DNA of 64,000 nucleotides from a phage. Location: the sequence record NC_100327.1, one strand, 5' to 3'. A program made the translations under genes and the position numbers. A model generated the notes under the pieces. The model ran no database searches. It saw nothing but the letters and a program-made list of their open reading frames with translations, and was not told the DNA's origin. Positions 1,831 through 45,880 of the stretch are shown here, piece after piece. The first letter of the stretch is position 1; each line of letters begins with the position of its first letter.

Positions 1831-2103
1831 TTACTTACGGCGGCAGAATTCAAGCGTTTTTAATTGATAATCTTCCTCAGCCTGGAGTACAACCGCCTCG
1901 ATCATTTCGTTGGCATTGTTGAAGCCATACCATTTAGCGAACTCATCCGCACCACCTTCGTGATCATGTTCTGCGTTCATCGCTTCCACGAAATGGAATT
2001 CAAGATTATTGAGATAAGGGCTTGATGTTCCGTCCTCTTTTTCGATGAGATCCCAAATAGCATTAAAACGTGATTCGACTTCTTGATTAATCCAGCTTGA
2101 CAT
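1831..2103 (-). CDS. hypothetical early protein (90 aa)
   Basis: ORF-track ORF; RBS AGAGAGGAAAACATT; promoter plus GC-rich leader element upstream. Confidence 0.5.
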   Translation of the reverse strand: MSSWINQEVESRFNAIWDLIEKEDGTSSPYLNNLEFHFVEAMNAEHDHEGGADEFAKWYGFNNANEMIEAVVLQAEEDYQLKTLEFCRRK

Positions 2104-2212
2104 AATGTTTTCCTCTCTTCTGGTTGTTGTGTGGGCACTTTTGCCCCTTCAAGATAAATGTTACCCCACCACCTGGCAGATGTCAACGGTTTTTATAGTT
2201 CTTATATGACAG

Positions 2213-2250
2213 GCAGGCCCGGTGATTGTCTCCCCCGTCGCCAGGTGCCT
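2213..2250 (-). promoter_or_regulatory. Conserved GC-rich promoter-proximal element, copy A (GGCAGGCACC..GACGGGGGAGACAATCACCGGGCCTGCC)
   Basis: Lies just downstream of the promoter at 2262-2289; near-identical copies at 11383-11420 and 11527-11568, each just downstream of a promoter. Confidence 0.5.
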
Positions 2251-2261
2251 GCCGTGTAATA

Positions 2262-2289
2262 AGTATAACAAAAAACAGGACCATTGCAA
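2262..2289 (-). promoter_or_regulatory. sigma70-type promoter (TTGCAA, 16 bp, TATACT)
   Basis: Hexamers read on the minus strand upstream of 1831-2103. Confidence 0.45.
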
Positions 2290-2313
2290 GCCCTGTTTTC
2301 TAGTTAATAAGGA

Positions 2314-2505
2314 TTATATTTTTTCGCCTATGTAGTCCGGTCGGTTTTTCTCTGTCATGCGCTTTAGCAATTCTTGCATGTTACTTATGGCTTGTAGTGT
2401 ATCCTCTTCCAGACTTGAATCAACATAATCAGGATCGTCTATGACCTTTCTATGATTATGATAACGCAGTACCGCCAATACCTTTCTAACTTGTTCAACA
2501 TTCAT
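2314..2505 (-). CDS. hypothetical protein (63 aa)
   Basis: ORF-track ORF tiling the minus-strand early block. Confidence 0.4.
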   Translation of the reverse strand: MNVEQVRKVLAVLRYHNHRKVIDDPDYVDSSLEEDTLQAISNMQELLKRMTEKNRPDYIGEKI

Positions 2506-2517
2506 TTTTATCGCTCT

Positions 2518-2652
2518 TTAAAACAAGGTGCCAACCGTTTCTAGTAGATCACTGACCACCAGGACAATACTGATCAGCACATATCTAACCATAAGGGGAA
2601 AGAGCGCCAGCGATCCCGCCACAATCCCCAAGGTAATGATTATCTTTTTCAC
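2518..2652 (-). CDS. small hydrophobic membrane peptide (44 aa, GTG start overlapping upstream stop as GTGA)
   Basis: Hand translation VKKIIITLGIVAGSLALFPLMVRYVLISIVLVVSDLLETVGTLF; two hydrophobic segments; fills the gap between 2505 and 2649; not in ORF track. Confidence 0.35.
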   Translation of the reverse strand: MKKIIITLGIVAGSLALFPLMVRYVLISIVLVVSDLLETVGTLF

Positions 2653-2939
2653 GGTTGACGGTTAACGTAAGCTTTACCGTTCACGGTTATGGGTAGATCC
2701 TCCAGGTCTGGATCTTCCTTAAGGTCGCGAGCAAGCTCACCGCACCGGATACCCTCGAATCCGTAGTACTCTGTTGTACCGTCATTAAAAGTTTTAGCGG
2801 CAAGGCATAAGCGATAAGTAACCCCGATTTGATTGACGGCATGGATATCCGTTAGATCAACCTCTTTTGCCAGCTCTTTAGCCATTACAGGCGCATTAAG
2901 TCCAACAACCAGGGCAACTACTGCGATCATCTTTTTCAT
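2649..2939 (-). CDS. small secreted/periplasmic protein with N-terminal signal peptide
   Basis: N-terminus MKKMIAVVALVVGLNAPVMA-KE is a typical Sec signal with an AxA cleavage site. Confidence 0.55.
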   Translation of the reverse strand: MKKMIAVVALVVGLNAPVMAKELAKEVDLTDIHAVNQIGVTYRLCLAAKTFNDGTTEYYGFEGIRCGELARDLKEDPDLEDLPITVNGKAYVNRQP

Positions 2940-3030
2940 TGTGTCTATCCTCTTTCTGCTACGTTTAAGGCGGCGGTAACCGCCTGTTTATGATTTATTG
3001 GTTAATTTTCAGGTATCGCTATAAATTAAA

Positions 3031-3255
3031 CTATGCTGTACGCTCAACTATAACAACGGTTTGAGGGATCTCACCTTCCACCACTATCAAGGCCTTTTTC
3101 TGCGTGATGGATATCTTTACCCGTTGCAGCGTGGCGGTGAAGTCTTTCATTTCGTCACGTGGTGTTTTAGTGCAATGCCAGATCTCAGGCTTACCTATTT
3201 GCAAGCCGCGTAAAAATTCTGTTTTACCTGTCTTATTCGTGATCATTTGATTCAC
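3031..3255 (-). CDS. hypothetical protein (74 aa)
   Basis: ORF-track ORF tiling the early block. Confidence 0.4.
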   Translation of the reverse strand: MNQMITNKTGKTEFLRGLQIGKPEIWHCTKTPRDEMKDFTATLQRVKISITQKKALIVVEGEIPQTVVIVERTA

Positions 3256-3256
3256 C

Positions 3257-3460
3257 TTAACCGATACCGTGGGAAGATAGGATCATGTTAGCCATAGTTG
3301 CAACCACTCCAACCGATAATGCCAGGCCAACTACTACAACCGTGAAAATTTTCTCTAACATGATTCTACCCTCATTAATGGGCGTTGCCTTATTGCCCCG
3401 CCCTACGAAATACAGTCTATCAAGTAATAAACTATTGTCAAGATTTATTTTACTTCCCAA
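3257..3460 (-). CDS. hypothetical small membrane protein; true start probably the internal ATG near 3361
   Basis: Track start is TTG; an ATG with RBS GAGGG (aatgagggtagaatcATG) would give a 34-aa hydrophobic peptide MLEKIFTVVVVGLALSVGVV... Confidence 0.35.
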   Translation of the reverse strand: MGSKINLDNSLLLDRLYFVGRGNKATPINEGRIMLEKIFTVVVVGLALSVGVVATMANMILSSHGIG

Positions 3461-3919
3461 ACGGAAAATTCACTACCTGGCGGAATCATCTTTTTAATCT
3501 TGTTTGCTGCTGCTACCAGATCCACGGCTTGTACTGTAATAATATAACCAATTGTCGAGGCTGTTGCGTTGAAAGTTTTCATTAAATTACCCTCATTAAT
3601 GGCGGGAAGTATTCCCGCGCTATGTAGTACACTTTACCAGATTGTTGACTGTTGTCAAACTATTTTAACGATAATCATCATATGCTTTATTGACCTGGCG
3701 AATATAACATTCAAAAGCTAGATCAATAGATTTATATTCACGGATATATTCACCATAGGAAACCACATACATTTCTATAGCTTCCTCATATGCGAGGAGA
3801 ATAGAATCTAAGCCTACGATCTCAGTCTTTGCAATAATAGCCATGATTTTTATCCTCTTTGTGGTTGGTGGGGCTTGTTGCCCCCTTTGATTTATATTCT
3901 ACAGTCTTATAAGGTCATG

Positions 3920-4153
3920 TCAACTATTTTCAAAAAATTTTTCTGCTGTAATATTTTTCCCGGTAGGGTTCGCTACTTTCAAAATTTTATCATGCACCGG
4001 ACGCCCGAAAGAATAAGATCCGTATACAGTAAACCAATAATTGCCGTCAGGCTGTACTATTACCGCCGCATGTGGTACGCCTTTTTCGTTTTTGCTGACA
4101 AAATAGATCACATTGCCATTAATAGCCTCGGCGCGTTTAATTTGTTCCATCAT
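3920..4153 (-). CDS. hypothetical protein (77 aa)
   Basis: ORF-track ORF; RBS TAGGTGA upstream; GC hairpin in 5' UTR. Confidence 0.45.
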   Translation of the reverse strand: MMEQIKRAEAINGNVIYFVSKNEKGVPHAAVIVQPDGNYWFTVYGSYSFGRPVHDKILKVANPTGKNITAEKFFENS

Positions 4154-35047: not shown

Positions 35048-36232
35048 TTAAGCTTTAGCCAAAATGGCGCTAAACTCTTCACCAAACTCTTTTACAATCT
35101 TCATCAGGTTTGGGTATGCTTTGATCAGCTGAGCAACAATCTTGTCACGCCCTTTACCGATAAGCAAGGCATTTCCTAAGGCATTAGGTTTCATCATCGC
35201 CATAAAGACTGAGAATACAAAATCTCGGTTCTCGTCCTTGAAGTTTTCCCAAAGGAAATCGAGGAAGTTTGCCACACAGCTGACAAGATCTTCGTCTGAG
35301 ATACTTGCATTTTCCATCATATTACGAATAGCGATACAACCTTCAGATCCAAGAATCCACAAAATGTCTGGCTGCTTAGGACCTACGTATTCTTTGCAGC
35401 CACCTGCCATAATCCGACCGATTTCCGGTAAATTGCGTTTCTTGGTGTGGTATGTCCAGATCTCTACCGCTGCAGTGTGACCAATAGCACCTTGCAGAAG
35501 AACACGGGCCATAGCGTCAGAAATAATACCGCTGTCAAAATCGTGCAAGATGTCAGATGCAGCAACCCAAGATCGTGGTGTGGCAAAAGATGGACAATTA
35601 ATCTCAGCCATAGCCTCATAATTATCAATAGCTGATGGAACTCTTTTCAGATACCCAATTACAGAGGAGTGAACCCCGTTGAGGAATGCGTAGTCCTCAA
35701 TAAACACCTCTGCATTGCTTGTAACCTCTACAATGATAAAACGGTTAGCCAGAGGGGCTTCGAGCGCCGAAAGAACCGCACCATCTGTAGAACGGTTACC
35801 CGCAGCCACAAAAACAGAACCCTTAGGGAATGCATAGGTGCCGCACTTGTGGTCAAGCATAATTTGCATTGCAACCTTTTGCAGGTAGTTATCTGCATGA
35901 GTGAGCTCATCCAGAAAGATAATTCCGCTCCAGTCAGGATCCGCAGGCCAAAATTCTGGAATTGCAAACACTGTACGTGTAGTTCCATCCGCTTCTACAG
36001 GGATAGGTAGCCCAGATAAGTCGGCAGGATCTTTATCTGACAGTCGCACGTCAACAAGGTTGTCATCTCGCTCACCGAACATATTATCAGCGATCTGCTT
36101 CATCACCTGGCTTTTACCCACACCCATTGGTCCCAAAATTAGGACAGATCGGCTATGACGTTGGGCAAACTGAATAATAGCTGGCAACTCACGGACAGTG
36201 ATTTGACCACTTTCGAATACGTTTCTTGACAT
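35048..36232 (-). CDS. AAA+ ATPase, MoxR/CbbQ-like
   Basis: Walker A VLILGPMGVGKSQ; Walker B IIFLDELTHA. Confidence 0.7.
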   Translation of the reverse strand: MSRNVFESGQITVRELPAIIQFAQRHSRSVLILGPMGVGKSQVMKQIADNMFGERDDNLVDVRLSDKDPADLSGLPIPVEADGTTRTVFAIPEFWPADPDWSGIIFLDELTHADNYLQKVAMQIMLDHKCGTYAFPKGSVFVAAGNRSTDGAVLSALEAPLANRFIIVEVTSNAEVFIEDYAFLNGVHSSVIGYLKRVPSAIDNYEAMAEINCPSFATPRSWVAASDILHDFDSGIISDAMARVLLQGAIGHTAAVEIWTYHTKKRNLPEIGRIMAGGCKEYVGPKQPDILWILGSEGCIAIRNMMENASISDEDLVSCVANFLDFLWENFKDENRDFVFSVFMAMMKPNALGNALLIGKGRDKIVAQLIKAYPNLMKIVKEFGEEFSAILAKA

Positions 36233-36501
36233 TAGTAAAAGTCCTCTACTTGTGTGTAAGTGTTTTCAAAGTTTTCCAAAACAGATATCACATCGAATCT
36301 GTCAATATCATACGTGACTCTCCAGTTGTACGCAACCCTTTCTGCTGTTGCCTCTTCTGGCGCTAGTCGTCTGCTGGCATAAAAGAGTGTTGGAGTACAC
36401 TTTCTTGCTTGCCCTCTAACTTTCCCATAATAATATCTGTGAATATCTTTGTCAAAATTTAACTCTTTTTCTGCACGAAGTTCATATTGCTGGTATAACA
36501 T
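36232..36501 (-). CDS. hypothetical protein (89 aa)
   Basis: ORF-track ORF. Confidence 0.45.
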   Translation of the reverse strand: MLYQQYELRAEKELNFDKDIHRYYYGKVRGQARKCTPTLFYASRRLAPEEATAERVAYNWRVTYDIDRFDVISVLENFENTYTQVEDFY

Positions 36502-38799: not shown

Positions 38800-38812
38800 C
38801 ACGTTTTTGATG

Positions 38813-38841
38813 TTGACATCTGTTGAGACAATTGATAAGAT
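38813..38841 (+). promoter_or_regulatory. sigma70-type promoter (TTGACA, 17 bp, TAAGAT) for the plus-strand accessory block
   Basis: Plus-strand hexamers back-to-back with the minus-strand promoter. Confidence 0.45.
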
Positions 38842-38872: not shown

Positions 38873-39850
38873 ATGAATCTTGAAAAATATTATACACCAG
38901 AAGAGTTAGAGCGCTTGCTCAAAAAATATAGACGCAAACAGAATAACGCACGGAAACGAGATATAGAGTTCGACCTGTCATGGGAAGAATACCTCCTATT
39001 TGGTAAAAAACTTTTAGGAGATGGAGTATGCGACTATACCCTTATACCTTTTGACATGCACACAGATGAAAACGGGCTGGGGAATCCTTTCTACCCATCC
39101 CTGGAGCGGATAGATGATGAAGGTCCTTATGCGGTTGATAACTGTTGTGTGGTGGGATTGAGATGCAACTCTCTAAAGGACTGTCTGGTAGATAAAAAGA
39201 CTGCAGTCTTGATTAAAGACGAAACTGATCGAAAAATTGTCCAGCAGATGATGCTCCACCTGAGCGAAGAGCGTATGGAGAAATTGAAAGGTGATTATAC
39301 TTTTGAAGATTTCATCTTGCAATATGGAACGGAAGAGGATAAACTAGCACTCTTTGACGAAGAAGAGGAGGAAGATATGCTACCGATGTCTAAAGTTACT
39401 TATCGTGCACCCAAGAAGCACATTTCCGACATTGTAAACGAGCCTATCACAGAAGAGATTGAAGAAATGACGCAACAGGTGCATGAAGAGGAAAAAGAGA
39501 CTCAGGAGGTCGAAGAGGAGCTTACAGAAGAGGTTCCTGCACTACCTGATGATGTTGAGATTGCCAAAGCTTACACTTTCTATTGTCAAACGTTCTACGA
39601 TGTAGGTATGAAAGTTGATCTGTCGTTCAGCCAATTTAAGAGTTCGTATATTCGCAAATGCTGTGCTTTAACTGGTGAACGTCTTGGAGCTGGACTTAAA
39701 CCCCTGTTGGTGACCGACTGGAATAAAGGTTTCACTAAAGGAAACTTTATGGTAGTATCTCCGATTATGGAGAAAGCTATGACAGATCTTATGAAGACCA
39801 CCCGCATGACAATGACCGAGTTGGCAGGTATTTTCAAACACGTTAAATAA
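38873..39850 (+). CDS. hypothetical protein; the track ORF starts at 38807 but the ATG at 38873 is more likely
   Basis: The track N-terminus overlaps promoter hexamers; Cys cluster C..CC..C in the N-terminal half; internal MSKVTYRA coincides with the inverted repeat. Confidence 0.45.
   Translation: MNLEKYYTPEELERLLKKYRRKQNNARKRDIEFDLSWEEYLLFGKKLLGDGVCDYTLIPFDMHTDENGLGNPFYPSLERIDDEGPYAVDNCCVVGLRCNSLKDCLVDKKTAVLIKDETDRKIVQQMMLHLSEERMEKLKGDYTFEDFILQYGTEEDKLALFDEEEEEDMLPMSKVTYRAPKKHISDIVNEPITEEIEEMTQQVHEEEKETQEVEEELTEEVPALPDDVEIAKAYTFYCQTFYDVGMKVDLSFSQFKSSYIRKCCALTGERLGAGLKPLLVTDWNKGFTKGNFMVVSPIMEKAMTDLMKTTRMTMTELAGIFKHVK
39381..39409. repeat. 29-bp perfect inverted repeat, right copy
   Basis: Exact reverse complement of 37519-37547. 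Confidence 0.7.
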
Positions 39851-39862
39851 TGACAGGGGCCA

Positions 39863-41344
39863 ATGGCCCCTTCTGGAGTTTTAATGGATAGCAGAAGTTC
39901 AGAAATCATTGCCTCGCAGAAAGATGATGCCCTGAGAATGTTGCAGGCTGCACGTATGTATCTCCTTGAAAAGCTGCCGTTTTATGGCACACTACTGTCA
40001 GGGTTGCAGTTCGTAGAAAACCACACATGGTGCTCCACCATGGCAACCGACCATAAACGCATCTATTACAGTCCTGAGTTCATTATGGGATTGGCTGATG
40101 AACGCAAGGCTATTCTTAAGGCTTCTCTAACTGACGAGCAGTTTGAGATGGCTGAAGTTTTCTATTCCCCAAAATCTGTGAAAGAGGTGGCCTTCCTTCT
40201 GTCACATGAGGTGGGGCATATTATCTGTGATCACCTAGTCCGTGGTAAAAGCTTTGAGCCGGAACTGTTCAATATTGCTTGTGATCACGTTATCAACACA
40301 GGCCTTGTGGTTGACTTTAGCAAACCTCCTTGTGTTTTCTTCCCGAAGGGGAAAAGCACTACGTTCCTGAAAGGTAAGCCTTTTGGCTTCTTAGCCAGCT
40401 GCTACTGCGACATGAAGTTTCATGGATGGATTGCTGAGAACGTTTATGCAGTTCTTGATAAGCAAAGAGATCAGAATAACGGTAAAAGTAAGAACGGTAA
40501 AGGTGAGAACTCTCAAAGTGATAAGCGACAAACCGATGATCGCATGAGTGGGAACGGTGGCACCAGTGATAATCTTGGAAAGGCTATGGGGTATGATCAG
40601 CCACAACCTGTAATCAGCCAATCTGATAAAGATCAGGCCATGCAGGACTCTGGTGATATGCTGGAGGCAGCAATGCAAGCGTCCGGAGGCCGTTGCCCTG
40701 AGGCGGTGCGTGAGTTTGTCAAGAACAGAGGTAAGCCTGTAATCAACTATATAGACATCATTAAGCAACGTATGTTGTCTAAAAGAAAGGCCGAACTGAC
40801 CTACAGAAAACCTGGTCGCCGATCTGGGTCTTTGACCAGCACAATGCGAAAAGTTGGGGCTATAAACAAGAACCAGCACGTTATTGTTCCTGGTCGTAAT
40901 CCGGAAAACACTATAGATATTGTGGTGGCTTTAGACGTTTCTGGCTCGATCTCTCAAAGAACTTTAAAGAAAATGTTCAATGAAATCACCGGATTGTGCA
41001 ATCTGTATAAAGAGTTTAAGGTTACAATGTTCTGTTGGTCAACTGAGGTTGGAGAGGTTAAAGTATACACTCGCGGCAACATAGACGAGATGGTCAACTA
41101 TGAGGTCCACTCAACATGGGGCACAACAGCTGCTTGCGTGTTCGAGTATCTGGATGCCAACATACCTAATGCAAAAGATGTCATCGTCCTGACCGACCTA
41201 TACTTTGAGCATAACTTTGAACAAAAGGTTGTTGACAACAAGTGGAAAAAGTACGATACTCTATGGGTCCTCACTGAGGGGTATAATAAAAATTATATCC
41301 CGAGCTTTGGGAAAACTGTGGAATTAATCGAGTACGCTAAGTAA
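39863..41344 (+). CDS. putative zinc metallopeptidase (HExxH) with C-terminal von Willebrand factor A domain
   Basis: HEVGH in the N-terminal half; MIDAS-like DVSGSIS in the C-terminal half. Confidence 0.6.
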   Translation: MAPSGVLMDSRSSEIIASQKDDALRMLQAARMYLLEKLPFYGTLLSGLQFVENHTWCSTMATDHKRIYYSPEFIMGLADERKAILKASLTDEQFEMAEVFYSPKSVKEVAFLLSHEVGHIICDHLVRGKSFEPELFNIACDHVINTGLVVDFSKPPCVFFPKGKSTTFLKGKPFGFLASCYCDMKFHGWIAENVYAVLDKQRDQNNGKSKNGKGENSQSDKRQTDDRMSGNGGTSDNLGKAMGYDQPQPVISQSDKDQAMQDSGDMLEAAMQASGGRCPEAVREFVKNRGKPVINYIDIIKQRMLSKRKAELTYRKPGRRSGSLTSTMRKVGAINKNQHVIVPGRNPENTIDIVVALDVSGSISQRTLKKMFNEITGLCNLYKEFKVTMFCWSTEVGEVKVYTRGNIDEMVNYEVHSTWGTTAACVFEYLDANIPNAKDVIVLTDLYFEHNFEQKVVDNKWKKYDTLWVLTEGYNKNYIPSFGKTVELIEYAK

Positions 41345-41359
41345 GAGAGGAGGTTATTT

Positions 41360-41623
41360 ATGGCAACAGAGTTAAAATTTGCATCAAACCGTAAAACTAA
41401 GAAGTATCTGTCCTCAGTAGCTCCAGGCACTGTGGTGATGTTTGTTGATGAACTTGGGGATGTGAATACAGCACTTGTTGTAAAATCACATCCTGCAAAC
41501 ATATATGTTGGGGTATTTGACCTGTTCAGAAAGGTGTTTGTAGAACTGCCTCACAGTTTGGTTGTTACAGAAATGGATGCCTGCATAGAAATTCTTGGCG
41601 AAGTTATGGTGGAGGAACAATAA
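41360..41623 (+). CDS. small protein (87 aa), tandem paralog 1 of 4
   Basis: Aligns with the next gene (MAT..F.S..K.KK....GTVV....FDL....VTE.D..I.ILGE); stop/start overlap TAATG. Confidence 0.5.
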   Translation: MATELKFASNRKTKKYLSSVAPGTVVMFVDELGDVNTALVVKSHPANIYVGVFDLFRKVFVELPHSLVVTEMDACIEILGEVMVEEQ

Positions 41624-41886
41624 TGGCTACCAGCATTGTATTCAATTCTAAGGTGAAGAACAAAAAGCGTGCAGACAGTTTTCCGTGTGGGACCGTGGTA
41701 AGTTGCGACGGAGACGGCATTCAAAACATAGTTATGATTGTCAAAACAGGAGAACATTGTGTGTGGGGGTTCGATTTAGAAAATAATGAGTTGTACGATC
41801 TGCCGCCAAACATGAAAGTTACAGAGCTTGACACCAAAATTACCATCCTTGGAGAGACAAGCTATTCAAAAGAAGGAGGAGAATAA
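41623..41886 (+). CDS. small protein (87 aa), tandem paralog 2 of 4
   Basis: Same length and conserved blocks as paralog 1; translationally coupled. Confidence 0.5.
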   Translation: MATSIVFNSKVKNKKRADSFPCGTVVSCDGDGIQNIVMIVKTGEHCVWGFDLENNELYDLPPNMKVTELDTKITILGETSYSKEGGE

Positions 41887-42149
41887 TGACCACAAAAATC
41901 ACTATCGCAGAACCGAAAGCTAACACTCAGCCTATCGAAAAGTTTAAGTGCGGTGAGGTGGTAACATTCACACCAGATAATGAAGATGCTAAGATTTTCG
42001 CAATGGTCACAGCTGAGTGGATGTGTGACAACACCACACAGGTTCTGCGTTTTGACACCTATCTTACCGATGAAATCAGGAACGACAAGATTGTGACTGG
42101 TGTGGATACTGAGATTGTTTTCTACAAGAGCTTTTTAGAGGGTTTCTGA
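41886..42149 (+). CDS. small protein (87 aa), tandem paralog 3 of 4 (more divergent)
   Basis: Same length; CGEVV block; coupled start. Confidence 0.45.
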   Translation: MTTKITIAEPKANTQPIEKFKCGEVVTFTPDNEDAKIFAMVTAEWMCDNTTQVLRFDTYLTDEIRNDKIVTGVDTEIVFYKSFLEGF

Positions 42150-42150
42150 T

Positions 42151-42384
42151 ATGGCAAAAATTAGAAAATTATCTAGCAATCAGGTTGTGAAAGACTTCGA
42201 ATCTGGAGAGATTCTTTATGTTCGTGATGCAGATGACGAAGGTGAAGATCTCGTTATGTTGGTGGGGCACGCTGAGGACGGATGCATCCAAGCTGTTTTT
42301 CTTGAAACAGCTATGGTGCACTGGATAGAGCTGGACCTGAAAGCACGAAAACCTAAAGCAGAAATCCTGATTTACGAAGATTAA
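42151..42384 (+). CDS. small acidic protein (77 aa), probable divergent paralog 4
   Basis: Similar size and GEIL/LVMLV blocks; adjacent. Confidence 0.4.
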   Translation: MAKIRKLSSNQVVKDFESGEILYVRDADDEGEDLVMLVGHAEDGCIQAVFLETAMVHWIELDLKARKPKAEILIYED

Positions 42385-42400
42385 CAAAAAGGAGATAGCC

Positions 42401-42850
42401 GTGTTGAGCAAACGTGAATGCGACAGCATTAGCCTGAATTCTTATAAGAAACAATGGTTTGGGGTGGAAGTTTGCCGACTGCGGCTAGGCTCCTACCTGA
42501 ACTTCGTTTATTATGAGAGTGACAGTCGTATCGTTTCTTATGAAGTGTTCTACACTAAGAACACATTCGAACTGCGCCGTAAAGTAGATGGCGGGAGAAC
42601 TACCACCCAGAATAATTGGGAAACTATTCTGCCTCCAGATGTTATAGGAAGTCCCCTGAATGTATCTGAAGATGAAAATCTTATGGTTCATGCTATGATG
42701 GGACTTGACAGCTTAGAGCTGGCAATCTATGATATGTCCATCGAAGCAGTTAAGCTGGACTACATCGAAAACACTTTAGAGGAAGGTATCAAGAAGTTTC
42801 TCAGTGAGAAATTAAAAGACCACTTTCATAAGGAGCTATATCTGTTATGA
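42401..42850 (+). CDS. hypothetical protein (149 aa)
   Basis: ORF-track ORF. Confidence 0.45.
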   Translation: MLSKRECDSISLNSYKKQWFGVEVCRLRLGSYLNFVYYESDSRIVSYEVFYTKNTFELRRKVDGGRTTTQNNWETILPPDVIGSPLNVSEDENLMVHAMMGLDSLELAIYDMSIEAVKLDYIENTLEEGIKKFLSEKLKDHFHKELYLL

Positions 42851-43092
42851 AGACCCGTAAAGAACGTAACAAAATTTTACCTGGAGCTCTCGAACACCTG
42901 ATGAAGTGCAGATCTATTTGGCACTCTGCCAAGGAAGGGCAGAAGGTGGTTGTGGTTAGTGACAATACCAACCCGTTTGGAGATTATACCACCATGATGG
43001 CCCCATATGTCCGTGATGGCGTTGTAGAAGTGGTCCCTTACAACGGTTTGCATGAACGGCACTTTGAAAGCGCTTTGCTAGTGGAGCTATAG
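42847..43092 (+). CDS. hypothetical protein (81 aa)
   Basis: ORF-track ORF. Confidence 0.45.
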   Translation: MKTRKERNKILPGALEHLMKCRSIWHSAKEGQKVVVVSDNTNPFGDYTTMMAPYVRDGVVEVVPYNGLHERHFESALLVEL

Positions 43093-43094
43093 TC

Positions 43095-43661
43095 ATGGCG
43101 GTCAATGTGGCTTACAACACAGGAAAGCTTGACAGAGACATTGGGTGTCTTGTCCTTTCAGATACAGAAGAGTATTGGGGTTATGGGTTGCTGTCAGACC
43201 CACACCCGAGCAACCTTGTATCAACAGTGCTATACCGCTACGACCCTGTGCCAACGGTACACGACAAAGACATTCACGACCTTCGGATCAAGTGTCTGGA
43301 AGATCTGCTGAACAATGGTTGCAACGATCTGCGGGTAGCCAAGGAGAAGCTTACAAACATTCACAAAGAGGAAGTGATGAGTACCCTCAGTAAAAGATCA
43401 GTGCACAAAAAGATGATGCTGAACTTTGCAATGGGTATCTACATGGATGGGTATAAGGGAGGGGATCCGATCCTCAAGCTTCGCTGCCCGACACTGTGGG
43501 AAAGAGTGGTTGACAGTAAGGACGGTACTGCCCTGCTCGAACTCCACACTGCAGGTTGGATTTGGCGGTATGTAGACGGATACCCTCTGTGGGCATGTGG
43601 ACCTGGGGAATTTGTTGACAGACCTAGCGCGGTGGTGGACTTACTATTGCAGTTTGAATAA
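43095..43661 (+). CDS. hypothetical protein (188 aa)
   Basis: ORF-track ORF. Confidence 0.45.
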   Translation: MAVNVAYNTGKLDRDIGCLVLSDTEEYWGYGLLSDPHPSNLVSTVLYRYDPVPTVHDKDIHDLRIKCLEDLLNNGCNDLRVAKEKLTNIHKEEVMSTLSKRSVHKKMMLNFAMGIYMDGYKGGDPILKLRCPTLWERVVDSKDGTALLELHTAGWIWRYVDGYPLWACGPGEFVDRPSAVVDLLLQFE

Positions 43662-43718
43662 AAAGGTGAGTTATAAGGTATTCATACACCTACCAACAAT
43701 ACAACAGGAGAGACTAAG

Positions 43719-43994
43719 ATGACGAAAGAAGAGGCCGACGTATTAGATTTTGCACTAGAGGCTACGCAGGAGGCTTTGGTGTTAGCTTGGAAAATGAACC
43801 AGCGTGCTGCAGAATGCAACCGCCGCATCAATGAGATCTTGGGCATGTCTATGTATGATTTCACCATGTATGCCGGAGAGATTCCTGAATTAACTGCCGA
43901 GATGAATGATCTTGACGATAAAATTAATATCATTCTGAAGACAGCAGAAACAACTCACCAAACCGCCCGTAAATTTATCAACGAGAAGGTGTGA
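43719..43994 (+). CDS. hypothetical coiled-coil protein (91 aa)
   Basis: ORF-track ORF; RBS AGGAGAGA. Confidence 0.45.
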   Translation: MTKEEADVLDFALEATQEALVLAWKMNQRAAECNRRINEILGMSMYDFTMYAGEIPELTAEMNDLDDKINIILKTAETTHQTARKFINEKV

Positions 43995-44461
43995 ATATGG
44001 ACTACAGCTACTGCGGGGAAGAAGTCCCTTTTAATTACAGCAATCTTACCACGAGCAATCCATATGAGACTCGCCACGGCACGCACATCATTGCCATCGA
44101 CTTTGATGGAACGTTTAATGCGAGCCCTTTCATCTTCTCCAGCCTGATCAGGGATCTGAAGAAGGAGGGGTGGACAGTCTACCTTGTGACTTTCCGATTC
44201 ATTACTCAAGACAATGTAGACATTGAGTATTGGCGCAAGGAGCTCGATGTTGGTGTGTTCTACACAGGTGGTGTTCAGAAGGCAGCCTACCTGGCGCAGT
44301 TTGATATCTACCCAGATATCTGGATTGATGATTCTCCGGCATGTATTCCGGCTAAGAATCAGTTAGAGTTTGCAATGAAGGAGATTGAGTATAAGTCTGA
44401 GGCTAAGCGGAACGGATGGCCCTTTATTATTGAAGATTACCCAGATCCTGAACCGGAGTAA
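43991..44461 (+). CDS. HAD-superfamily phosphatase (putative nucleotidase)
   Basis: Motif I IIAIDFDGTF; later DIWIDDSP block. Confidence 0.55.
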   Translation: MNMDYSYCGEEVPFNYSNLTTSNPYETRHGTHIIAIDFDGTFNASPFIFSSLIRDLKKEGWTVYLVTFRFITQDNVDIEYWRKELDVGVFYTGGVQKAAYLAQFDIYPDIWIDDSPACIPAKNQLEFAMKEIEYKSEAKRNGWPFIIEDYPDPEPE

Positions 44462-44687
44462 GAGCCATGAGGCGAAGATATCATTACCTGATGTGGAAGT
44501 TATATCAAAATGCTGCCAAAGCCTATCATATCATGTTTGGCAATGACGATCACTACATCATGTTACATCTCACCGCTATTGAGCATCACAATGAGTGGAT
44601 TCATGCAATCGTGGCAGGTGATAAAGACTTTAAGTAAAGTATACCTCAAAAACGTATAGTGCGGCTTTCTAGACGGAGACTGATTAA

Positions 44688-45068
44688 ATGTGCAAGTGTA
44701 AATCCTATAATTGGAAAGTGAAAGGTGCCAAGCATCCAAATGTTATCGTTGATGTGCCTAAAAATCTTCGTGACGGCAAAAAACGTGTGTGCCTTGATAA
44801 GTGTATGGCTAAGCCTATCATGAGTTTGTGGGCAGCAGGTTTGAAAACGCTAAACTGCTGCTGTGGTCATAACAAAGATATTCCAAGCATCATTATCCCA
44901 GAAGATGCAGATCCTAAAGCTTATGCCAAAATACTGACCCGCTATCCCAGCACCTTCCTGATCGGAAAATGGTGTCACGATGAACTCCAATGGTGGATAG
45001 CCTATGGTAGTATAGGCACTACTTTTGGCTTCCCAGCTTTGTCAGAGCGCTATGTCAAAGTGTCATAA
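44688..45068 (+). CDS. Cys-rich hypothetical protein (126 aa)
   Basis: ORF-track ORF; CKCK and NCCCGH clusters suggest metal binding. Confidence 0.45.
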   Translation: MCKCKSYNWKVKGAKHPNVIVDVPKNLRDGKKRVCLDKCMAKPIMSLWAAGLKTLNCCCGHNKDIPSIIIPEDADPKAYAKILTRYPSTFLIGKWCHDELQWWIAYGSIGTTFGFPALSERYVKVS

Positions 45069-45846: not shown

Positions 45847-45880
45847 AAAAGAAAGGGGCCGTTTGGCCCCTTTTTATTTA
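45847..45880. terminator. Bidirectional rho-independent terminator between convergent blocks
   Basis: Hairpin aaaggggccgtttggcccctttttattt with U-runs on both strands. Confidence 0.7.

Follow-up and report, generated by a model that had tools for sequence, protein, structure and literature searches.

A tandem array of four paralogous small-protein genes with a predicted SH3/Tudor-like barrel fold in Vequintavirus phages

Vequintaviruses, the rV5-like phages, are widely used as candidates for biocontrol and therapy, and most of their early genes have no assigned function. In one such genome, four small genes follow one another on the same strand, raising the question of whether these are real genes of common origin and what their products might do in the infected cell. 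We examined this locus within a 64,000-nucleotide stretch of phage DNA (record NC_100327.1; hereafter the window), for which an initial annotation, made from the sequence alone, had proposed a translationally coupled array of diversified paralogs. Where it was compared (4.7 kb, bases 39800-44500), the window matches Escherichia phage nimi (MN850626) and also the BASEL phage CarlMeissner with 100% identity, and its coordinates correspond to nimi 35503-99502. This segment is at least 90% identical in 120 records, nearly all of them from the genus Vequintavirus, and on this similarity we assign the window phage to that genus of rV5-like E. coli myophages. The four ORFs are already deposited in GenBank as hypothetical proteins (nimi_142-145; Murica gp013-016), and together they represent one small-barrel gene that has expanded within this lineage. 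As a phage accessory array it is an ordinary one, and unsurprising in a phage early region.

Gene organization and the surrounding transcription unit

Four consecutive small ORFs, three of 87 and one of 77 amino acids, were confirmed at the locus, with the first preceded by a Shine-Dalgarno sequence:

41347 to 41353, + strand: Shine-Dalgarno sequence of ORF1, GAGGAGG, read off the sequence
41360 to 41623, + strand: ORF1, 87 aa, family-A member, phrog_10698, pVOG VOG5597, pI 5.0
41623 to 41886, + strand: ORF2, 87 aa, family-A member, phrog_10698, pI 4.9; the extra copy, found in 43/117 Vequintavirus records
41886 to 42149, + strand: ORF3, 87 aa, phrog_12861, distant paralog and the most constrained member, pI 4.5
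42151 to 42384, + strand: ORF4, 77 aa, phrog_12046, the most divergent paralog, pI 4.6

The overlapping TAATG junction that had been read into the whole array is found between ORF1 and ORF2 and between ORF2 and ORF3, where stop and start share a single base; it does not extend to ORF3 and ORF4, which are joined by TGAtATG, where a single base separates stop from start. At each of the four starts, a Shine-Dalgarno-like GGAGG/GAGGG lies 6-8 nt upstream, within the 3' end of the preceding gene. The geometry of junctions and Shine-Dalgarno sites fits coupled translation, which we infer from this arrangement. The GC content of the array is 0.39-0.42, as compared with 0.40-0.50 in neighbouring segments, so that there is no anomaly of composition.

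The array is embedded in a longer run of genes, with the following landmarks:

38813 to 38841, + strand: predicted sigma-70-type promoter with extended -10 (TTGACA-17-TAAGAT with TG), equivalent of rV5 P011
38873 to 39850, + strand: Srd-like ('anti-sigma factor') gene, first of the unit, with PHROG matches to the Srd anti-sigma factor, a decoy of host sigma70
39863 to 41344, + strand: DUF2201 metallopeptidase-like and VWA-like gene (N4 gp25-like), conserved left anchor of the array (Pfam DUF2201_N 4.3e-28, DUF2201 2.5e-11)
42401 to 42850, + strand: phrog_6790 gene, 149 aa, conserved right anchor (PHROG match)
45852 to 45873, bidirectional: intrinsic terminator found in the window, equivalent of rV5 t026/t027 (rV5 terminator table, PMC3606486 Table S4), end of the unit

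The promoter sequence, TTGACATCTGTTGAGACAATTGATAAGAT, has one mismatch relative to rV5 P011 and likely marks the start of the transcription unit that holds the array. It falls inside the longer version of the Srd-like ORF, which begins at TTG 38807; the start at 38873 used here is that of the Murica annotation. The authors of the rV5 genome proposed that genes 11-26 form one transcription unit, closing at the bidirectional terminator (PMC3606486). Within this unit the array lies 15 nt downstream of the VWA gene, and MoxR-type ATPase genes are found nearby on the other strand.

Several observations bear on when and where the products may act. A scan for the late-promoter motif returned no site just upstream of the array, and peptides of gp14-16 are absent from the rV5 virion mass-spectrometry table, which lists 19 proteins. 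The family members are acidic, with pI values of 4.2-5.0 and net charges of -4 to -9. No transmembrane-length hydrophobic run was seen on reading the sequences. Taken together with the promoter match, these observations point to early, cytoplasmic, non-virion expression. In the literature searched we found neither a transcriptome of a Vequintavirus nor functional work on the array genes.

Relationships among the four genes and to known families

ORF1 and ORF2 share 38% identity, with a Smith-Waterman z score of 20 (500 shuffles), and all of the common blocks noted in the initial annotation (MAT, GTVV, FDL, VTE.D..I.ILGE) are present in both. Scores against shuffles were lower for ORF2/ORF3 (z=5.0), ORF3/ORF4 (3.8) and ORF2/ORF4 (3.1). 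The family-A profile was built from 7 sequences of the ORF1/ORF2/gp014/P0011 family, for which rV5 gp014, the homologs P0002, P0008 and P0011, and the array of a divergent metagenomic phage (L023) had been gathered as diverse relatives, and it was searched against the 366 six-frame ORFs of the window. It recovered ORF3 (E=7.5e-7) and ORF4 (E=4.7e-4), followed only by noise, starting at 0.076. The earlier description of ORF3 and ORF4 as diverged versions of the first two genes thus stands, as the profile matches both and no other window ORF beyond noise. Alignment with family-A by hhalign gave P=1e-6 for ORF3 and P=1.3e-4, across 69 collinear columns, for ORF4. The reverse profile searches were each weak, and their top non-self matches were still members of the array.

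On these comparisons, we conclude that all four ORFs belong to a single superfamily of paralogs, in which ORF1, ORF2 and gp014 are about equidistant (38-40% identity) and ORF3 and ORF4 form deep branches. The paralogy of ORF4 is the least certain link, yet it is supported by the profile alignments. Existing classifications divide the same proteins differently. ORF1 and ORF2 match phrog_10698 over their full length (7.6e-43 and 4.8e-41), as ORF3 does phrog_12861 (8.8e-62) and ORF4 phrog_12046 (5.1e-55), and nimi_142 and nimi_143 are both labelled pVOG VOG5597. PHROG lists phrog_10698, phrog_12861 and phrog_12046 as three separate families of unknown function, which the profile comparisons made here unite; the merger of these three into one superfamily is new.

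We considered further candidates for membership. The 81-aa ORF6 (42847-43092) is not significantly related (P=0.44), and the 85-88-aa genes that lie between Srd and VWA in Av-05, SSE121, Mydo and Hena1 align with P=0.011 over 37 columns only; neither was accepted. A HMMER search of 1.84 billion representative proteins gave 11 matches. Among these are two giant repeat proteins (P0012 and P0013), which we treated as sums of low-scoring repeats and not as homologs; P0013, the one scanned, bears DUF11 and pilin domains. A word-indexed protein search with ORF2 returned 3 near-identical proteins only.

Scans of the four proteins and their neighbours against Pfam, NCBIfam and PADLOC gave no functional match to the array proteins, for which all library scores lay below threshold and amount to noise (E roughly 0.02-0.13, to aSelB_III, Kelch_HCF and BrnT). 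The PADLOC search, which covers defence proteins only, matched none of the four ORFs and none of their neighbours at E<=1, and a PDB sequence search with the family profile had none below E=0.46. A BrnT type II toxin-antitoxin assignment for ORF4 was rejected, at 13.1 bits as compared with a cut-off of 34.5 (E=0.13). So was the DUF1883 label carried in nr by one homolog (P0043): hmmscan of this protein and nine other members found no match to PF08980 at E<=10, and the label probably stems from automatic annotation. The earlier judgement that no function can be read from the sequence is borne out by these searches, in that neither Pfam, NCBIfam, PADLOC nor the PDB sequences yield a match and no library assigns a function.

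A predicted SH3/Tudor-like barrel

Structural models of two members were generated using AlphaFold2. ORF2 was modelled as an all-beta barrel (pLDDT 76.1, pTM 0.62) and ORF4 as an all-beta 5-strand barrel (pLDDT 79.5, pTM 0.68), from shallow alignments of 5 and 9 sequences; the ORF4 model was built on the family alignment and so does not test the fold independently. The five core strands of the two models match after a 4-residue alignment offset. The models thus predict a single SH3/Tudor-like small beta-barrel domain of generic type with a five-strand core, and this is a new, if model-based, fold assignment for the array family. Structure prediction followed by Foldseek comparison, the route suggested at the outset for this locus, led to SH3/Tudor-like barrels, with a core that superposes on solved SH3-like structures, and the best viral matches outside the family were uncharacterised small phage proteins.

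The barrels compared included Tudor or 'royal family' domains and other SH3-like barrels (the Tudor domains of PHF19, SMN and TDRD2, PWWP, the Spt5 KOW and the uL2 C-terminal domain). In the listed matches the array proteins share 2-20% sequence identity with these, without a Pfam match. Unlike them, the array proteins are acidic, and the 87-aa members have extra N-terminal strands. Three specific assignments were tried and rejected. A Tudor-type reader of methyl-lysine or methyl-arginine would be expected to carry the aromatic cage of 3-5 residues, which is not conserved here; two aromatic columns are common to the family, and there is no Pfam TUDOR match. Assignment as a KOW protein of the NusG/Spt5, uL24 or uL2 type fails on the lack of a PF00467 match and on pI values of 4.2-5.0, which are not basic, and the eS4 KOW region was reached in the PDB profile search at E=1.2 only. 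An Sm/Hfq assignment fails in that the models have no N-terminal helix, the Sm motif is absent and the pI is acidic.

Many SH3-like barrels (KOW, uL2, Sm) bind nucleic acid and not protein. The array products could similarly be RNA or DNA binders, akin to KOW, uL2-SH3, Sm or PSHCP-Tudor domains, that tune phage or host translation or transcription. We consider this very improbable, since all members carry a net charge of -4 to -9, the models lack the N-terminal helix of the Sm type, and no KOW, Sm or TUDOR family of Pfam was matched by the four window proteins (E<=1) or by ten further members (E<=10).

The matches of ORF2 include bacterial RNA-polymerase-binding Tudor-like domains (the UvrD/PcrA C-terminal domain and the CarD N-terminal domain), without a sequence relation and with scores no better than those of dozens of other barrels. 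Those of ORF4 include HspQ (YccV), a modulator of the Lon AAA+ protease and itself a small acidic SH3-like barrel; the match is weak and generic, has no sequence similarity behind it, and serves as a lead only. Small barrels of other phages (N4 gp21, together with kuravirus and N4-like proteins in BFVD) were matched by Foldseek at E of 1e-2 to 7e-4 and TM of 0.6-0.8. These resemble the array proteins in size and are likewise uncharacterised. The gene for N4 gp21 lies in a non-structural region. No sequence relation to the array family was detectable for these barrels, and neither gp21 nor other small N4 proteins were close enough to be accepted as family members.

A swappable slot, a conserved pair and their possible roles

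By sliding comparison, the flanks of the window and of rV5 are 95-100% identical; identity drops to at most 56%, and a gap of some 260 nt opens, over precisely the following segment:

41348 to 41900, + strand: replaceable cassette, ORF1 and ORF2 here, a single gp014-type gene in rV5, delimited by sliding identity and by the gene content of the locus

The drop is sharply bounded, and the difference between ORF1+ORF2 and gp014 is therefore the replacement of a cassette. Across Vequintavirus records, ORF1 and ORF2 occur together in 43/117, and the remaining 74/117 carry a single family-A gene, which in every such locus that was read is a third variant, of the rV5 gp014 type. The type of cassette does not track species labels, as Pr121LW and nimi are both named 'V. 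murica'. ORF3 and ORF4 are present in all 117 records, at amino-acid identities of at least 93% for ORF3 and approximately at least 88% for ORF4.

Further afield, the number of copies changes. The slot is empty in the other Vequintavirinae that were read, namely Av-05, SSE121, Mydo, Hena1, PBES02 and the unclassified A5-4, where the DUF2201/VWA and phrog_6790 genes are adjacent. One copy, an 83-aa gene of the P0011 type, fills the slot in a metagenomic sister clade (L014, L028-L031). There are three copies in rV5 (gp014, gp015, equivalent to ORF3, and gp016, equivalent to ORF4). The window has four, as does a divergent metagenomic phage (L023-25). In a further lineage, solitary gp014-like and ORF3-like genes are found elsewhere in the same region. 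Homologs of the DUF2201/VWA gene are spread over Vequintavirinae, N4-like and jumbo phages.

This distribution bears on one possible role, in which the paralogs would form a hetero-oligomer, or would be adaptors or substrates for the pair of MoxR ATPase and DUF2201/VWA protein encoded close by, with coupling fixing their stoichiometry. The stop/start overlaps and equal gene lengths would suit such an arrangement, as would the VWA gene 15 nt upstream, the nearby MoxR-type ATPase genes, the general tendency of small barrels to oligomerise, and the Foldseek match to N4 gp21, the gene for which lies three genes upstream of the N4 ATPase/VWA pair. However, related phages have 1, 3 or 4 copies, genera that retain both MoxR and VWA have none, solitary copies sit elsewhere in the early region of another lineage, and N4 gp21 is unrelated to the family in sequence. 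We regard a role as complex subunits as quite unlikely.

To gauge constraint on the genes, dN/dS was estimated by the Nei-Gojobori method across Vequintavirus genomes, and every value fell well below 1:

ORF3: 0.01-0.05, with dS reaching 0.5 to >1
ORF4: 0.02-0.13
ORF1: 0.11-0.24
ORF2: 0.15
gp014 type: 0.11-0.14

Between the window and rV5, ORF3 differs by 20 synonymous changes and 1 non-synonymous change, and the reading frames are intact in 117 phage genomes. By these measures the four ORFs are real protein-coding genes under purifying selection, and not chance ORFs. That they are chance frames or decaying remnants might be suggested by the confinement of homologs to one phage lineage (the 11 matches in 1.84 billion representative proteins). 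Yet this reading is contradicted by the selection analysis, with its many synonymous changes, and is hard to square with the intact frames, the Shine-Dalgarno sites at 4/4 starts and the confident fold predictions, so that we find it barely credible.

The genes evolve at two speeds. In the divergent phage L023, ORF3 and ORF4 retain 95-98% identity as flanking genes fall to 55-65%, and these two are among the most constrained genes of the region. At the other extreme is the single-copy P0011-type gene of the sister clade, for which dN/dS is 0.31-0.54 in 5/6 pairs and 0.14 in the closest pair, as compared with 0.04-0.13 for its flanking genes at similar dS. In the metagenome collection, this gene falls into 58 distinct clusters at 90% identity, and their variability is restricted to residues 1-36 and the C-terminal end, with a near-invariant centre. 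This pattern suggests positive selection on the slot gene, with no dN/dS value above 1, and the faster rate in the family-A slot could also come from relaxed constraint.

The array had been described as a diversified accessory region. This is upheld for a lineage-specific slot with a copy number of 1 to 4, and not for ORF3 and ORF4, which are constrained and present in all 117 records. Only the first slot (ORF1/ORF2 or gp014) behaves as a diversifying accessory cassette, and the separation of a conserved pair, ORF3 and ORF4, from this swappable first slot is new.

Could the array be a counter-defence locus, in which the variable first-slot genes (ORF1, ORF2, gp014 and the P0011 type) inhibit strain-specific bacterial immunity? 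The sharp borders of the cassette replacement, the copy number of 0 to 4 across phages, the dN/dS of the single-copy clade at 5-10 times that of its flanks, and the localised variability of 58 diverged P0011-type variants all point in this direction, as does the small, acidic nature of proteins encoded in a probably early unit. On the other hand, there is no similarity to any characterised protein (the PADLOC search, of defence proteins only, gave nothing), dN/dS is below 1 throughout, and ORF3 and ORF4 do not follow an arms-race pattern. In the BASEL screen, moreover, Vequintaviruses proved exceptionally sensitive to restriction-modification (RM) systems (PMC8594841), which makes an effective anti-RM role unlikely. 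A host-interaction or anti-defence role, as raised in the initial annotation, is plausible; the counter-defence locus in particular we hold to be possible, if rather unlikely.

The explanation that we prefer, and to which we would give an even chance, is that the four ORFs encode small proteins that are made early and bind other proteins in the cytoplasm, the target being conserved for ORF3 and ORF4 and variable for the first slot. One ancestral small gene would have undergone tandem duplication and divergence to give the four ORFs, each encoding a soluble, acidic product that is roughly 80-87 residues long and has one SH3/Tudor-like barrel domain. All four are probably carried on one transcript, running from the sigma-70-type promoter upstream of the Srd-like gene to the terminator near 45.86 kb; since this would be made from a host sigma-70-type promoter, the products would be early and non-virion. 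Each start has its own ribosome-binding site, placed such that ribosomes finishing one gene may begin the next. The products may then act in the cytoplasm of the infected cell as small modules that bind proteins, whether as inhibitors or as adaptors. For ORF3 and ORF4 the partner would be a conserved one, supplied by the host (a core machine) or by the phage itself (a conserved protein), which we propose as the reason for their near-invariance. The first slot, whether occupied by ORF1+ORF2, by gp014 or by the fast-evolving gene of the sister clade, would bind a host-variable target, with the cassette exchanged between phages. A more specific proposal, which we think unlikely, is that of a phage family of Tudor/SH3-like mini-binders with divided labour, in which ORF3 and ORF4 act on an invariant host machine (e.g. 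RNA polymerase or an AAA+ protease) and the first-slot genes are strain-specific immunity inhibitors.

For Vequintaviruses, the result unites three PHROG families in one superfamily with a predicted fold, in which two invariant members are distinguished from a swappable slot. If the slot genes are immunity inhibitors, they would help to account for strain-to-strain differences among near-identical therapeutic phages; if they are not, the array is another lineage-specific accessory family. Were the mini-binder proposal true, the array would represent a new anti-defence or host-takeover family, the specificity of which is swapped between phages as a cassette.

The MoxR/VWA gene pair

Two annotated MoxR ATPase genes lie a few kb from the DUF2201/VWA gene that borders the array on its left, on the opposite strand, so that in Vequintavirus the MoxR/VWA pair is split by a divergent promoter region.

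35048-36501, minus strand: two neighbouring MoxR ATPase genes (nimi_133 and nimi_134)

This differs from the arrangement in the Vequintavirinae relatives PBES02 and A5-4, where the MoxR and VWA genes are co-directional. GenBank records give the DUF2201/VWA gene itself (39863-41344 in the window; 2024-3485 in the related locus L003) various names: 'HNH endonuclease', 'anti-sigma factor', 'metallopeptidase' and 'DNA repair ATPase'. The rV5 reference carries it as an overlapping pair of ORFs (gp012 and gp013), a split that points to either a sequencing error or a frameshift in that record.

Gene starts, names and conservation in the array's predicted transcription unit

The predicted promoter at 38813-38841 (the equivalent of rV5 P011) falls within the longest ORF for the Srd-like gene, which begins at a TTG at 38807. 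The start of this gene differs among records, being placed at 38810 in nimi and at an ATG at 38873 in Murica, and we consider the Murica start more plausible than those upstream.

Some records label the 149-aa gene at 42401-42850 'putative holin' or, by way of its family phrog_6790, 'tail protein'. It nevertheless lies within this unit, driven by the predicted sigma-70 promoter, and directly 3' of the VWA gene in all examined genera; both names look like propagated guesses. Further along, the HAD-like or 'polynucleotide kinase' gene (43991-44461) is present as two ORFs in phage JLBYU08 (L002 7191-7663), a split suggestive of a frameshift there. Also conserved in the unit is a Cys-rich protein, whose gene is directly adjoined in another phage lineage by solitary gp014-like and ORF3-like genes.

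44688-45068 (window), 1621-2052 (related locus L017), 3558-3986 (related locus L019): Cys-rich protein (MCKCKSYN...CCCGHNK)

Host labels and a TnpB-type gene among related records

Sixteen UNVERIFIED 'Campylobacter phage' records from a phage collection (e.g. MG065635, MG065661; L007) are Vequintavirus genomes matching the array region, those listed having either 98.7% DNA identity or 97.8-99% VWA protein identity. Since they are Vequintavirus genomes, attribution to a Campylobacter host looks doubtful.

A 123-kb metagenomic, Vequintavirus-like contig (L014) carries a TnpB-type gene between a fucosyltransferase-like gene and an Srd-like gene.

L014 2119-3258, also in L015: OrfB_IS605/Cas12f1-like_TNB (TnpB-type) gene, 379 aa

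Its product would be a transposon-type nuclease within an apparently lytic phage genome.
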